Source of the DNA: Candidatus Altiarchaeota archaeon
GTDB taxonomy: Archaea > Altiarchaeota > Altiarchaeia > IMC4 > QMZM01
Direction of reading: 5' to 3'
Assembly: GCA_018897475.1 (NCBI GenBank)
Contig: JAHIKS010000142.1
Span: 1 to 33,020, forward strand
Length of the DNA stretch: 33,020 nucleotides
Shown one piece after another: positions 13,605 through 29,508 of the stretch. The translations under genes and the position numbers were made by a program. Numbering within the stretch: position 1 is the first letter of the stretch; each line of letters opens with the position of its first letter. The notes under the pieces are model-generated. The model made no database searches, was not told the origin of the DNA, and saw only the letters and a list, made by a program, of their open reading frames with translations.

Positions 13605-13843
13605 GCGTGTCAAATATTTTTTATAAAAGAAAAATTCACTACGAGAATCCTACATTTATCTAAATCCTTGCATAAATTAACTATTTCTGACTTAGGGGAT
13701 ATTCCCGACCTGAACGAGATCAAGGAGAAGGCAATACGCGGGAGGGAGATTCTCTACGAGAGAATTTAACCGATAAATTTTGTAATCGCTATAATATATA
13801 ATTGATTCTCACATTATCTAATAAACAGAAAAAAGGATTAAAA

Positions 13844-15970
13844 ATGTCAGCGAAATGGGCTTTATTGGCGGTTTTCTTGATATTAGTCTCAACAACCCCA
13901 GTGGCTGAGGAAGAGCAGGGAATCATACTGGAATGGGAGCGTCAGTTTCCCTCCAGAATTACAGCCATCATAGCGGATGACTGGGACAACGACAGCTCGA
14001 CCGAGATTATTGTAGCTGCTTCAAGGAGCATCTATATCCTGGATTCTGAAGGGGAGCTGGAGAAGGAATATACTATCGATTCGGACGGAGAAATCTATGC
14101 GCTGGCTGTCGGAAGCATAGACAACAGGACTGGGAATGAAATTCTAGCCGGCACTGGATTTACGTTGAGGGAGCGCTCCAACGATACATGGTTTGAATTC
14201 ACAGGGACAGAAGCAACTGAAAAGACGGAGTACCTCTATGAAACGATAAGGAATAAGGGGGAACTGTACGTCATAAGTGACGATGAGATTAGTGAGCTGA
14301 AGGACATGGGTGAGTGGATAAGAACAATCCATATCTCAAATCTGGACAACAACGGAACGGATGAGATAATAGTCGGAACCGGAGGGGCCAATACCGACTG
14401 GATGATGGAATATGGTGATTGGATTGAAACAATCTGCAGTTACAAAGACCGCCCCGGTTTTGATACCCTCATCTATAACTGCAGTGATATACTTCATAAT
14501 GCAAGCTGGCATCGTGTTTCCTATGAGATGAACAACGGCTCCGTTTACGTTTTGATAGAAAACGGGAGCGTTCTTGGGAACTACGTCTTTGATGATGTGG
14601 TGTGGGGTTTAAGCACATCCGACCTCTTTCATGACCAGGACGAGGAAATAGTGGTTGGCTCAGGCGATAATGTATATGCACTGGACAAAGACCTGGGACT
14701 CCTCTGGAGTTACCCTCGTGATGGCACCGTCAAAAAGATAGAGATATCTGACATCGACAGGAACGGAAATGAAGAGATTATTGCCGAATTCAGGGCAACA
14801 AACGTTAATGGAATAGCAGTCATCGAGAGAGAAGGCGAGGACATCTGGGAGTACAGGCTCAAGGGTGACGTAGTCCGGGACTTCTCCATCAGGAACATTG
14901 ACCTGGACGAGGAGGAGGAGGTGCTGGTTGCCTCATCCAATAGCGTATATGTCGTGGATAAAGACGGTAGACTCAAGAGGGAATTCTGGATATTCGAGGG
15001 CATTGACAACATTCTATCCACGGATATGGACAACAACGGCTATCAGGAGATTATACTCACGTCGGAGGACACCGTTTATAGCTATGAGATATCGGAGAGA
15101 CTCATAATAGGGCATAATGCCACCATCCATTACTCGCTTGCAGAAAAAAACTATGGCCTGGAGAATTACCAGAAGGCAATGGAATTTACTGAGATAGCAA
15201 AGGGGCTATATTCTGAAATCAATGACCCTACAGGGATATCAAAGTGCGATTCATTGCTTGAGAAAATACAGGAAGGCATAAACAGAAACAAGGAGATAGA
15301 AGCGCGGTCCCTCTACAACCAGGCAATGATGAAGTATCTTATGAATGACTATCTCAACGCAAAAGTGCTCGCAGAAAGAGCCAGATGGCTCTACGTCGAG
15401 ATTAACCATCCCGAGGGAATCGAAACGTGCAGCTCCCTGATAGACGACATAAACCGGGAGGGGCATCTGGAGAACGTCACCGTGGAGAATATAACCTCAA
15501 CCACGAGTACAATCACTAACATTACGACCATCTCCCCAACCACACTCCTTGTGACGATTGTACCCATCGATGAGGATGAAACACCGAATCCAATCACGGA
15601 TTTCTTTATGAAAAACCAGAAAAGAGCACCCTACGCTATAGGAGTAGGTGTCGTCATGCTCATAACATTCCTCATCATCAGGAACAGGTACTTCAAAAAG
15701 AAGGAGGAGATGAAGGCCCGTATCGGAGAGGGAAAGCCAATTGAAGAGAAAGCAAAACCTGAAGAGAAACCCGCCGAAGAGAAGCCAGCCGAGGAAGCGA
15801 AACCTGAGCCAGAGAAGAAAGAGGAACCAAAGCCAGCCGAGCAGGAGAAGCCAGAAGCAGAGGAAGAGCCGGCCGAAGGGGAGGAGCTGGAGCTGCCCGA
15901 AACGCCGGAGCTGGCCAAGGAGCTTGACGAGATAGACAAGGAATTCCAGGAGAAATACGGGAAGGAATAA
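13844..15970 (+). CDS. secreted/membrane-anchored 7-blade FG-GAP-like beta-propeller protein with helical TPR-like repeats, a C-terminal TM helix and a Pro/Glu/Lys-repeat cytoplasmic tail
   Basis: Signal-like N-terminus MSAKWALLAVFLILVSTTPVA. Seven D-x-D/N-x-D/N-G-x-x-E-I-I/V-V repeats. Two repeats of the ...Y.EINDP.GI..C..L type. Thr/Ser linker, TM helix APYAIGVGVVMLITFLII, then a [14 protein letters not shown]... tail. Many N-x-S/T sequons. The start is trimmed from the TTG at 13802 to the ATG at 13844. Confidence 0.7.
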   Translation: MSAKWALLAVFLILVSTTPVAEEEQGIILEWERQFPSRITAIIADDWDNDSSTEIIVAASRSIYILDSEGELEKEYTIDSDGEIYALAVGSIDNRTGNEILAGTGFTLRERSNDTWFEFTGTEATEKTEYLYETIRNKGELYVISDDEISELKDMGEWIRTIHISNLDNNGTDEIIVGTGGANTDWMMEYGDWIETICSYKDRPGFDTLIYNCSDILHNASWHRVSYEMNNGSVYVLIENGSVLGNYVFDDVVWGLSTSDLFHDQDEEIVVGSGDNVYALDKDLGLLWSYPRDGTVKKIEISDIDRNGNEEIIAEFRATNVNGIAVIEREGEDIWEYRLKGDVVRDFSIRNIDLDEEEEVLVASSNSVYVVDKDGRLKREFWIFEGIDNILSTDMDNNGYQEIILTSEDTVYSYEISERLIIGHNATIHYSLAEKNYGLENYQKAMEFTEIAKGLYSEINDPTGISKCDSLLEKIQEGINRNKEIEARSLYNQAMMKYLMNDYLNAKVLAERARWLYVEINHPEGIETCSSLIDDINREGHLENVTVENITSTTSTITNITTISPTTLLVTIVPIDEDETPNPITDFFMKNQKRAPYAIGVGVVMLITFLIIRNRYFKKKEEMKARIGEGKPIEEKAKPEEKPAEEKPAEEAKPEPEKKEEPKPAEQEKPEAEEEPAEGEELELPETPELAKELDEIDKEFQEKYGKE

Positions 15971-23047: not shown

Positions 23048-23860
23048 ATGGAGCTAAAGGTAGTAATTTCGGATCCCGAGACGGGGAAGGCCTATCAGCA
23101 GGAGCTGAAGGATGATAGGGCCATCAGGTTCAAGGGCAAGAAGCTGGGCGATGAGATTAGCGGCTCGGTTCTCGGCCTGGAAGGCTACACCCTTAAAATA
23201 ACTGGAGGCAGCGATAGATGCGGCTTTCCCATAAAGCCGGGAGTCCATGGAACCGCAAGGCCGAAGATTCTCATGACCGGAGGGATAGGATACCATCCCA
23301 AGAGAAAGGTTCGCAGCAAGAAGAGAGTAAGGGGGGAGAGTATAGATGATGACATAACTCAGGTTAATACGACGGTAGTCAAGAAGGGTAGGAAGGGGCT
23401 AGAGGAGCTCATTGGCGCTGGAGAGGGGAAGGATGGCGAGAAGCCGCCTGAGACAGAGCCAAAGACTGAAGAAAAGCCAGCTCCGGAACCCGAGACCAAG
23501 CCAGCCGAGGAAAAGCCAGTAGAAGAACCAAAGCCCGAAGAGCCGAAGCAGGAAGAGAAACCAGCCGAGGAAGCAAAAGAAGAAGAGAAACCAGAGGAAA
23601 AGCCGGCTGAAGAACCAAAAGTAGAAGAACCCAAGCCCGAGGAGAAATCGGTTGAGGAACCTAAGCTCGAGGAGAAACCAGCTGAGGGAGCAAAGCCTGA
23701 AGAGCCAAAGCAGCAGGAGAAGAAAGAGGAGCCAAAGCCCGAAGAGAAACCAGATGAGGAAGTGAAACCAGAGGAGCCAAAACCTGAAGAGAAGCCAGCC
23801 GAGGTAGAGGAAAAACCAGCCGAAGAAGCCGAGAAACCAGCAGAAGAAAACAAGGCATAG
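23048..23860 (+). CDS. rps6e: 30S ribosomal protein S6e with a C-terminal Pro/Glu/Lys-repeat extension of about 145 aa
   Basis: The N-terminal ~125 aa (MELKVVISDPETGKAYQQEL...GFPIKPGVHG...) is S6e. From about 23426 onward the sequence is (E/K)-P-x-E-E-K-P repeats. Confidence 0.88.
   Translation: MELKVVISDPETGKAYQQELKDDRAIRFKGKKLGDEISGSVLGLEGYTLKITGGSDRCGFPIKPGVHGTARPKILMTGGIGYHPKRKVRSKKRVRGESIDDDITQVNTTVVKKGRKGLEELIGAGEGKDGEKPPETEPKTEEKPAPEPETKPAEEKPVEEPKPEEPKQEEKPAEEAKEEEKPEEKPAEEPKVEEPKPEEKSVEEPKLEEKPAEGAKPEEPKQQEKKEEPKPEEKPDEEVKPEEPKPEEKPAEVEEKPAEEAEKPAEENKA
23623..23751 (+). repeat. 129-nt repeat copy A (within the rps6e tail), about 96% identical to 29256..29384
   Basis: A hand alignment gives 5 mismatches in 129 nt with no gaps. 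A second short match follows (23787-23812 vs 29458-29482). Confidence 0.85.
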
Positions 23861-27613: not shown

Positions 27614-28219
27614 ATGTATAAACTACTCATTGTAGAGGACACGGTAAGACTCCCGCCTAAGAGATTTAACGAAGATTTGGAGGAAACACTCATGACGGAA
27701 TTCGAGAACACCATGGTGGGCAGAATAGACCGGGAGGTTGGCCTCATTCTTGCGGCAACCCGGGTTATTGAGATAGGGGATGGCAAGATAATACTTGGTG
27801 ATGGGGCCATCTACTACAACACAGTTCTTGAAATTATTGTGTACGAACCCGTATTAAACGAGGTCGTTGAAGGAACCGTAACTGAGATTACAGAATTCGG
27901 AGCCTTCGTGAATTTTGGTCCCATGGACGGCCTTGTCCATGTTTCTCAGGTGACTGAGGACTTCATGGGCTACGACCAGAAGAATTCAAACCTTGTGGGC
28001 AAAGAGTCGAAGAAGGTCCTCAAGCTGAGTGATTATGTAAGGGCCAGGATAGTTTCGGTAAGCCTGAAGCCAAGGTTCTCGGACTCCAAGATAGGCCTTA
28101 CGATGAGACAGCCATACCTCGGGAAGAAGGAGTGGCTCGAGGATGAGAAGAAGGCACAGAAGGAAAAGGAGAAAAAGAAGACAAAGCCAAAGAAAGAGAA
28201 AAAGGAGAAGAAGAAATAA
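27614..28219 (+). CDS. rpoE: DNA-directed RNA polymerase subunit E' (Rpo7) with a Lys-rich C-terminal tail
   Basis: Rpb7-like N-domain plus S1 domain (VVEGTVTEITEFGAFVNFGPMDGLVHVSQV). The tail is KKAQKEKEKKKTKPKKEKKEKKK. Confidence 0.88.
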   Translation: MYKLLIVEDTVRLPPKRFNEDLEETLMTEFENTMVGRIDREVGLILAATRVIEIGDGKIILGDGAIYYNTVLEIIVYEPVLNEVVEGTVTEITEFGAFVNFGPMDGLVHVSQVTEDFMGYDQKNSNLVGKESKKVLKLSDYVRARIVSVSLKPRFSDSKIGLTMRQPYLGKKEWLEDEKKAQKEKEKKKTKPKKEKKEKKK

Positions 28220-28405: not shown

Positions 28406-28912
28406 ATGAGGAGCAAAACCCTAAAGCTTCCCAACTCATTGAGAGAAAAGCTAAAGGAACCCTTCGGAGAACTATTGGTCGGCCTGGAGGGAGTAAGGCA
28501 TAACAAGAACATAATATGCGTCGGCGACGAAACATCAAAAATAGCGCTGGAATTCGGACTCAAACCTAAGGTTTTGGTCTATGACGGAAAGATAAAGAGG
28601 GAATCCGTTTCGATTCCAGCCATAATAAGAGACTTCAAAGCGACCGAGGTAAGGATTACGAATCCGGCAGGTTACATAACCTCCGAATCCTTTGAGGCAA
28701 TATATACCGGAGTGACGGGCTTCGGAAGGGTCAAGATACGGGTCGATGGGGAGGAGGACCTGCTGACCATTGCTGCAATAGACCTCGCACCCGCGGGCTC
28801 TGTAGTGCTCTATGGCCAGCCACACGAGGGCCTGGTCGTTGTAAAGGTCAACGAAGAAAGTAAAAAGAGAGCAAAAAAGGTACTTGAACAGATGGATATA
28901 GAAAAAAAATGA
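28406..28912 (+). CDS. DUF359/COG1909 protein (archaeal GTP-dependent dephospho-CoA kinase family)
   Basis: 168 aa with ..IICVGDETS...VLVYDGKIKRE.., in its conserved archaeal position between spt4 and rps24e. Confidence 0.7.
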   Translation: MRSKTLKLPNSLREKLKEPFGELLVGLEGVRHNKNIICVGDETSKIALEFGLKPKVLVYDGKIKRESVSIPAIIRDFKATEVRITNPAGYITSESFEAIYTGVTGFGRVKIRVDGEEDLLTIAAIDLAPAGSVVLYGQPHEGLVVVKVNEESKKRAKKVLEQMDIEKK

Positions 28913-29508
28913 ACATTGAAATTCTTGAAGAGAAGGAAAATCCCCTCCTTGGGAGGAAGGAGATTAGATTCAGGGTTGATTATAAAGGGAAGACTCCCGG
29001 TTTTGAGGAGGTAAGGAACGAACTGATAACGAAGGTAAGCGCCGACAAGAATCTTACGATAATAGACTCTGTCAATTCCGATTTTGGAAGTCAGAGTGCC
29101 TTTGCCTACGCAAAGATTTACAAGGATGAAAAGAGCATGAAGGTAGAGCCGGGATATAGGATAGGGAAGAACATCGAGGGCAAGAAGAAAAAGGAAACGA
29201 CGGCAGAGGAAAAGCCAGCCGAAGCAAAGCCAGCAGGGGGGGAGGAGAAGCCAGCAGAAGAACCCAAGCCCGAGGAGAAATCGGTTGAGGAACCTAAGCC
29301 CGGGGAGAAACCAGCCGAGGGAGCAAAGCCTGAAGAGCCGAAGCAACAGGAGAAGAAAGAGGAGCCAAAGCCCGAAGAGAAACCTGCAGAAGAACCCAAG
29401 CCCGAAGAACCCAAAGAGGAAGCAAAACCAGAACCCGGCCCGGAGAAGAAGCAGGAAGAGAAACCAGCCGAGGTAGAGGAAACCAAGGAGGAGAAGAAGG
29501 ATGGCTAA
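28909..29508 (+). CDS. rps24e: 30S ribosomal protein S24e with a C-terminal Pro/Glu/Lys-repeat extension of about 110 aa
   Basis: The N-terminal ~88 aa ([25 protein letters not shown]...) is S24e. From about 29170 onward the sequence is EEKPAE-type repeats. The end overlaps the rps27ae start. Confidence 0.88.
29256..29384 (+). repeat. 129-nt repeat copy B (within the rps24e tail), about 96% identical to 23623..23751
   Basis: Hand alignment, as described for copy A. Confidence 0.85.

Follow-up and report, generated by a model that had tools for sequence, protein, structure and literature searches.

A long, acidic and predicted disordered Pro/Glu/Lys tail on ribosomal protein S6e of an Altiarchaeota archaeon, with DNA exchanged with the tail of S24e

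In a genome of a Candidatus Altiarchaeota archaeon, ribosomal protein S6e consists of a complete globular domain and a C-terminal tail of 145 residues, which is built of degenerate Pro/Glu/Lys repeats, is predicted to be disordered, recurs at variable length in relatives and has exchanged DNA with the tail of ribosomal protein S24e. We consider it rather probable that this acidic tail is genuine and translated, and that it is maintained by selection as a passive, flexible surface bristle whose length drifts.

Results

A complete S6e domain is followed by 145 residues of low complexity

The window, i.e. the whole stretch of DNA analysed, is an entire 33-kb contig of the metagenome-assembled genome G000 (1.41 Mb in 151 contigs, 86.6% complete). 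On its forward strand an open reading frame at 23048-23860 runs without interruption through 270 codons and ends in a normal stop codon (23858-23860). Residues 1-125 (23048-23422, forward strand) constitute the globular S6e (eS6) domain according to Pfam, matches to solved structures and an AF2 model. The Pfam family Ribosomal_S6e (PF01092) was matched on residues 4-122 with an E value of 1.6e-37 and 128.5 bits against a cut-off of 26, covering profile positions 2-124 of 125, which bears out the preliminary description of this DNA in calling the domain complete. The best solved-structure matches were archaeal eS6 chains of 125-151 aa (top E value 1e-28), and AF2, run with an alignment of relatives, assigned a pLDDT of mostly 80-90 to the domain. 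S6e is single-copy in G000, with one match in the genome, and the gene order GatE - S6e - eIF2-gamma - PIN is kept in the related genomes G001 and G002 and in a related contig from JGI. A short Lys-rich tail likewise terminates the product of another gene in this cluster (28138-28216 of the window), RNA polymerase subunit E’ (Rpb7-like, with SHS2 and S1 domains).

The remaining residues 126-270 (23423-23857, forward strand) form a low-complexity tail, delimited by composition, repeats, the AF2 model and the lack of a Pfam match; a Pro/Glu/Lys-repeat tail of about 145 aa had previously been placed at 23426-23857, and its length is confirmed. The 145 residues comprise 55 Glu, 30 Pro, 29 Lys and 12 Ala, so that Pro/Glu/Lys account for 79% and Glu, Lys, Pro and Ala together (E+K+P+A) for 87% of the tail, with 21% proline and 8% alanine. 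Tandem Repeats Finder detected degenerate in-frame repeats with periods of 15, 18, 21, 30, 45 and 72 nt and 66-88% matches, and the most frequent pentapeptides are EEKPA, EKPAE and KPAEE. A Pfam scan of the S6e tail alone, as of the tail of eL24, returned no family even at an E value of 0.1. The extreme C-terminus, comprising the last ~17 residues (23807-23857, forward strand) and ending in KPAEENKA, is the part that is conserved among genus-level relatives.

The fraction of charged residues in the tail is 0.59 and its net charge is -28; the domain has a net charge of +9 and the whole protein one of -19. Positive and negative charges are far more evenly mixed than in shuffled sequences (z = -3.9). 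In the AF2 model the pLDDT of the tail is 41-46, and helix and strand are absent from about residue 123 to residue 270. Low pLDDT, a proline content of 21% and well-mixed charges together indicate that the tail is an intrinsically disordered, expanded chain, a prediction in line with the highly charged and disordered extension that had been expected from the sequence.

The tail is present in independent assemblies of close relatives

A search with the S6e domain as query, covering proteins of 148-473 residues, yielded nine relatives at the genus level, whose sequences stem from ENA, JGI, NCBI and Logan assemblies; their domains are 79-95% identical to that of the window and the whole proteins are 176-262 residues long. 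In all nine the domain runs on at the same junction into the same kind of tail, 51-137 aa long, which answers the question raised in the preliminary description of whether, and at what length, orthologues carry it. About 15 residues at the end of the tail are near-identical in seven of the nine relatives, and the middle of the tail is full of insertions and deletions (alignment A1). The tail of one ENA protein corresponds to that of the window minus 34 residues; P0003, the closest relative in ENA, was compared by its protein sequence. The JGI contig, which was assembled from two samples, is syntenic with the window, 89.5% identical over 9.4 kb and encodes an S6e of 262 residues.

These data bear on the concern that the tail could be an artefact, namely a chimeric join, a repeat expansion made by the assembler, or a missed stop codon or frameshift. 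The source is a fragmented metagenome-assembled genome of 151 contigs, and a 44-nt exact run is common to the S6e and S24e tails on the same contig. However, this run is the longest exact match of the S6e tail elsewhere in the genome, and the longest exact repeat within the tail measures 15 nt, which makes misassembly driven by repeats unlikely. Moreover, independent assemblies from several sources carry the same architecture, synteny is conserved on both flanks, and the end of each of the two tails is marked by a gene-specific motif, which orthologues retain. We regard an artefact as extremely improbable. The earlier statement that the tail does not stem from a neighbouring gene likewise stands, since junction and tail end are the same in independent assemblies and the next gene, here and in the three close relatives examined, is eIF2-gamma.

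An origin of the tail by gene fusion was considered and rejected: eIF2-gamma directly follows S6e in G001, G002 and the JGI contig, and there is no separate Pro/Glu/Lys gene. A frameshift was also considered as origin of the short tail of G001; since both ends of this tail align with those of the long tails, an in-frame deletion in the middle is the likelier event.

Charged S6e tails vary widely in length

Within the phylum, S6e was matched in 55 of 61 genomes. The open frames span 127-131 aa in one family, which is essentially tail-less, and 137-241 aa in others, the frame in the window being the longest at 274 aa. Exact tail lengths, determined for 29 loci, range from 5 to 145 aa. This range, together with the existence of a near-tail-less family, implies that the tail is dispensable for S6e function as such. 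Within the family, strongly acidic S6e tails are confined to G000 and G002, the tails in its other genera being near neutral.

We also measured the 150 S6e clusters nearest to the window’s protein in an exhaustive, profile-free search of 1.84 billion representative proteins. The median C-terminal tail in these clusters is 40 aa; 84 clusters have tails of at least 30 aa, 42 of at least 60 aa and nine of at least 100 aa, and most tails are rich in Glu, Lys, Pro and Ala. The longest, at 142 aa, falls slightly short of the 145 aa found in the window. Judged from these sequences, uncultivated archaea commonly have charged S6e tails, and the tail described here is an extreme case, not a one-off. The previously assumed norm of 125-135 aa for archaeal S6e thus fits solved archaeal ribosomes (125-151 aa) but not uncultivated archaea, with tails of at least 30 aa in 84 of the 150 clusters.

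Other additions to archaeal S6e were also encountered. In P0202, P0164 and P0133 a charged Lys/Pro/Glu linker is followed by a helix-hairpin-helix domain (Pfam HHH_5, E value about 1e-8), i.e. an S6e-HhH fusion at the same end. An archaeal eS6 of 214 aa in a solved structure (PDB 9fhl, chain G) has its S6e domain at residues 116-214, so that its extra mass is N-terminal, unlike the C-terminal tails described here.

DNA exchange between the tails of S6e and S24e

The S24e gene (28909-29508, forward strand; Pfam S24e on residues 4-95) encodes a 104-aa tail of the same vocabulary. A block of the S6e tail at 23623-23751 (forward strand, about residues 193-235) is identical to positions 29256-29384 of the S24e tail in 124 of 129 nt (5 mismatches, 96%), and the identity drops sharply on both sides; the block sits inside 179 nt over which the two tails are 86.6% identical. 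A module shared with S24e, as noted in the preliminary description, is thus evident at the DNA level. A 13-residue core motif of the block occurs in each of the three S24e tails compared (those of the window, of G002 and of the JGI relative) and in few S6e tails, namely those of the window, of P0003 and, in altered form, of the JGI relative. From this distribution S24e is the likely donor. Identity between S6e and S24e tails amounts to 86.6% within the window and 78.3% within the JGI contig, as compared to 76.5-78.9% across genomes, a within-genome likeness that fits repeated conversion.

The same module had also been ascribed to a membrane protein in the window. An EEKPAEE-type stretch at 15725-15901 (forward strand; low-complexity residues 641-700) does lie at the C-terminal end of a beta-propeller membrane protein (ORF 13802-15970), but its DNA is 70-75% identical to the S6e tail over 72-140 nt and 76% identical to the tail of ribosomal protein P0 over 121 nt, so that the repeat vocabulary is common to these genes and the comparison gave no sign of recent DNA exchange. 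The P0 tail in turn is 68-77% identical to the S6e tail and 71-79% identical to the S24e tail over stretches of 47-226 nt.

Two vocabularies can be distinguished in G000, an acidic, Pro-rich one in S6e, S24e, P0 and the membrane protein, and a balanced Lys/Glu one in uS4, uS5, uS11 and uS13; DNA sharing occurs within each of the two groups. In the second group, the tails of uS5 (contig C131, 12949-13986) and uS4 (contig C136, 2633-3424) are 87% identical over 266 nt, of which the final 62 nt are fully identical and enter the frames of different downstream genes, uL30 and uS11. On the basis of these sequences, the sharing looks like an exchange between two ribosomal operons.

Many ribosomal proteins of the genus are extended

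Ribosomal proteins account for seven of the ten real genes in G000 with a charged low-complexity run of at least 40 aa. At least nine ribosomal proteins carry charged extensions of 70-165 aa: S6e, S24e and the Pfam-confirmed proteins uS5 (tail of about 110-120 aa), uS4 (about 100 aa), eL24 (about 105 aa) and P0 (about 90 aa), as well as uS11, uS13 and eL32, where N-terminal extensions of about 80, 72 and 164 aa, respectively, are found. Together they add roughly 950 residues per ribosome. The C-terminal tails of S6e, S24e, uS4, uS5 and eL24 measure 145, 104, 97, 109 and 104 aa in G000, 126, 79, 76, 86 and 109 aa in G002, and 51, 52, 65, 53 and 65 aa in G001. Among 22 genomes of the family, uS4 and uS5 tails of at least 50 aa are restricted to the window’s genus. 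Tail lengths of different proteins are positively correlated across the family in every case (Spearman 0.25-0.60), values that are descriptive only, the genomes being related.

The extensions differ in charge, with net values of -15 for S24e, -13 for uS5, -15 for P0, -3 for uS4 and +11 for eL24, and a Lys-rich extension in eL32. All over the family, eL24 tails have a positive net charge (+6 to +23). In G000 (contig C142, 6899-7402) this basic tail of 104 aa contains His-Lys-Glu repeats. Nearly every genome of the family encodes such a basic eL24 tail, 30-109 aa long, whereas descriptions of archaeal eL24 are of a short protein with one domain. The extension of about 164 aa that precedes the Pfam L32e domain of eL32 (contig C131, 11156-11992) is rich in Lys, Ala and Pro and histone-H1-like.

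Ribosomal protein P0 of the genus (contig C86, 7308-8405, reverse strand, in G000; also in G002 and G001) ends in a plain Pro/Glu/Lys tail without the conserved hydrophobic G-L-x-x-L-F-G motif, which binds factors and terminates the tails of archaeal stalk proteins. P0 of related genera keeps this motif (GLASLFG), as does P1 of G000, and in G000 and G002 the sequence G-[Y/P]-L-F-G is found in frame immediately past the stop codon of P0. As the loss of LFG from P0 suggests, function can be overridden by the turnover of tails, which mutation may largely drive.

In G009 (locus L046), which represents a related genus, S24e has a tail of 167 aa made up of nearly perfect repeats of about 21 aa; it was longer than any other S24e tail in the 21 genomes of the family that gave an S24e match, two of the loci ending before a stop codon. 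Another gene of G000 (contig C103, 2802-3197, reverse strand), whose product we take by eye to be cold-shock-domain-like, has an extremely acidic Glu/Ala/Pro tail of 61 aa with a net charge of -35.

Divergence of the tail compared to neutral expectation

Between the window and G002, the DNA of the S6e tail is about 70% identical and that of the domain 90.6%; pN is 0.14 for the tail and 0.044 for the domain. The dS of the domain is 0.34 to G002 and 1.14 to G001. A dN/dS ratio for the tail was discarded, as an alignment guided by the protein matches up repeat units that are not orthologous, and synonymous differences have reached saturation (pS 0.6-0.7); instead, neutral substitution was simulated on the tail at half of the domain dS per lineage. 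With 0.17 substitutions per site, only 2-10% of the runs kept all 145 codons free of stops and the E+K+P+A fraction dropped from 0.87 to about 0.68, and at 0.57 substitutions per site less than 0.5% of the runs remained open. In contrast to this simulation, the S6e tails of the relatives are open with an E+K+P+A fraction of about 0.9, and the short tail of G001 has lost its middle and retained both ends. These differences suggest that selection acts against truncation and against other residue types, thereby keeping the frame open and the composition pure. Constant homogenisation by slippage or conversion could, however, produce this purity with weaker selection at the protein level than the simulation implies.

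Discussion

Low-complexity regions of prokaryotic ribosomal proteins are terminal, mostly C-terminal, rich in Glu, Lys and Ala, spread over many lineages and inferred to be located at the surface; S3, S24, L10 and L12 are the recurrent archaeal cases in that survey, and S6e is not among them (Ntountoumi et al. 2019, PMC6821194). The S6e tail shares with these regions its C-terminal position, the 87% of Glu, Lys, Pro and Ala and the degenerate repeats. It differs from them in being much longer (145 aa), Pro-rich (21%) and Ala-poor (8%), with proline replacing most of the alanine, and in belonging to a set of at least nine extensions within one ribosome. The tail is therefore an extreme case of the low-complexity tails known from ribosomal proteins, which uncultivated archaea often have but which are little described there; our literature search found no paper on ribosomal protein tails of Altiarchaeota or DPANN.

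Eukaryotic eS6 (236-249 aa; mosquito RPS6 is longer) presents the same protein extended at the same end by about 100 or more residues, as here. The eukaryotic extension is helical and carries phosphorylation sites. It is also basic, whereas the tail of the window is acidic, Pro-rich and predicted to be coil. Homology between the two was not found: nearly all alignments with eukaryotic eS6 end at query residues 118-135, one chain (7qep_S6) aligning up to residue 192. As the alignments stop there, the S6e tail is not the eukaryotic C-terminal extension. The mosquito RPS6 tail has been described as histone-H1-like (PMC548281). The hinge and tail of the archaeal stalk proteins P0/P1 use the same Ala/Pro/Glu/Lys vocabulary as the S6e tail, which ends in KPAEENKA and lacks the stalk-type terminal G-L-x-x-L-F-G. 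PEVK-type entropic springs and Pro-Glu/Pro-Lys spacers, such as those of titin PEVK and TonB, are extended, non-collapsing and elastic. Pro, Glu, Val and Lys make up 82% of the S6e tail, for which similar behaviour would be expected, without a sequence relationship or a known mechanical role.

We hypothesize that the tail acts as a bristle on the ribosome. It was probably built by in-frame duplication of short repeats (15-72 nt), with one block or more contributed through gene conversion by the tail of S24e, which is encoded 5.6 kb further downstream. Unfolded and without a grip on rRNA, the tail would project from the small subunit as a flexible, hydrated and negatively charged bristle with a coil size of about 10 nm, as estimated from polymer scaling. 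Such a bristle might improve solubility and prevent ribosomes from adhering to one another or to further components of the cell. Selection would preserve the open frame of the tail, exclude other residue types and hold the two ends in place, and the length of the tail would drift through slippage and conversion.

The main rival is that the tail is tolerated junk, a functionless by-product, neutral or slightly costly, of slippage and gene conversion running out of control at a C-terminus that is exposed to solvent and permits such growth. The wide length variation, from 5 to 145 aa among relatives with some families tail-less, and the loss of the LFG motif from the P0 tail of the genus support a tolerated, mutation-driven expansion, as do the much faster divergence of tails than of domains (about 70% versus 91% DNA identity to G002; pN 0.14 versus 0.044) and the movement of modules between unrelated genes. 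Neutrality predicts, however, early stops and a loss of purity at the observed divergence, as the simulation indicated, and all close relatives keep open tails of about 90% Glu, Lys, Pro and Ala with conserved ends. In addition, at least five ribosomal proteins lengthen together in one genus, and the cost of doing so is not trivial because ribosomal proteins belong to the most highly expressed ones. Weighing these points, we find a functionless tail doubtful, albeit a possibility to be taken seriously.

Two further proposals assign the acidic tail a partner. As a self-chaperone it would fold back on the basic RNA-binding surface of free S6e and maintain solubility until displaced by rRNA. The charge of +9 on the domain and of -19 on the whole protein, and the acidic tails on other basic ribosomal proteins (S24e -15, uS5 -13, P0 -15), are in agreement with this proposal, which we nevertheless judge unlikely: the same ribosome also has neutral or basic extensions (uS4 -3, eL24 +11, Lys-rich eL32), S6e tails of other genera of the family are near neutral, and 145 residues are far above the need for neutralising +9. 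Alternatively, the tail could pair electrostatically with the basic 104-aa tail of eL24 in a fuzzy intersubunit bridge, a disordered analogue of eB13. Archaeal eS6 is located at the periphery of the subunit interface and contacts eL24 in the 70S ribosome, and the eukaryotic bridge eB13 is formed by the C-terminal extension of eL24 and eS6 (PMC9932298). The charges would allow such pairing, eL24 tails being basic across the family (+6 to +23) and S6e tails strongly acidic in G000 and G002. On the other hand, eL24 tails of 40-80 aa are present where S6e is almost tail-less, e.g. in G004 and G013, rRNA is the obvious partner for a basic tail, and the correlation of charges comes from related, non-independent genomes. 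Such a bridge hence appears very unlikely. Its more elaborate form, a selected polyelectrolyte coat of the ribosome in which tails of opposite charge are paired, with an S6e/eL24 fuzzy bridge convergent with eB13, and are matched by gene conversion, is equally a long shot. Altogether, the selected surface bristle remains the reading that we favour.

Structures of ribosomes come from a handful of cultivated species and do not show flexible tails, so that they hardly tell what the protein surface of most archaeal ribosomes looks like. More than half of the S6e sequence clusters nearest to the one described here have charged tails, and in one genus nine or more ribosomal proteins together carry roughly 950 added disordered residues. 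The tails change through slippage of repeats and through the exchange of DNA among essential genes that are not related to each other; all the same, their open frames and pure composition appear to be maintained. If they do form a solubilising or spacing brush, this would bear on how small cells keep a crowded cytoplasm fluid, and the tails would offer natural models of disordered solubility tags. Should the tails be neutral, they would measure how much disordered mass a ribosome can tolerate.
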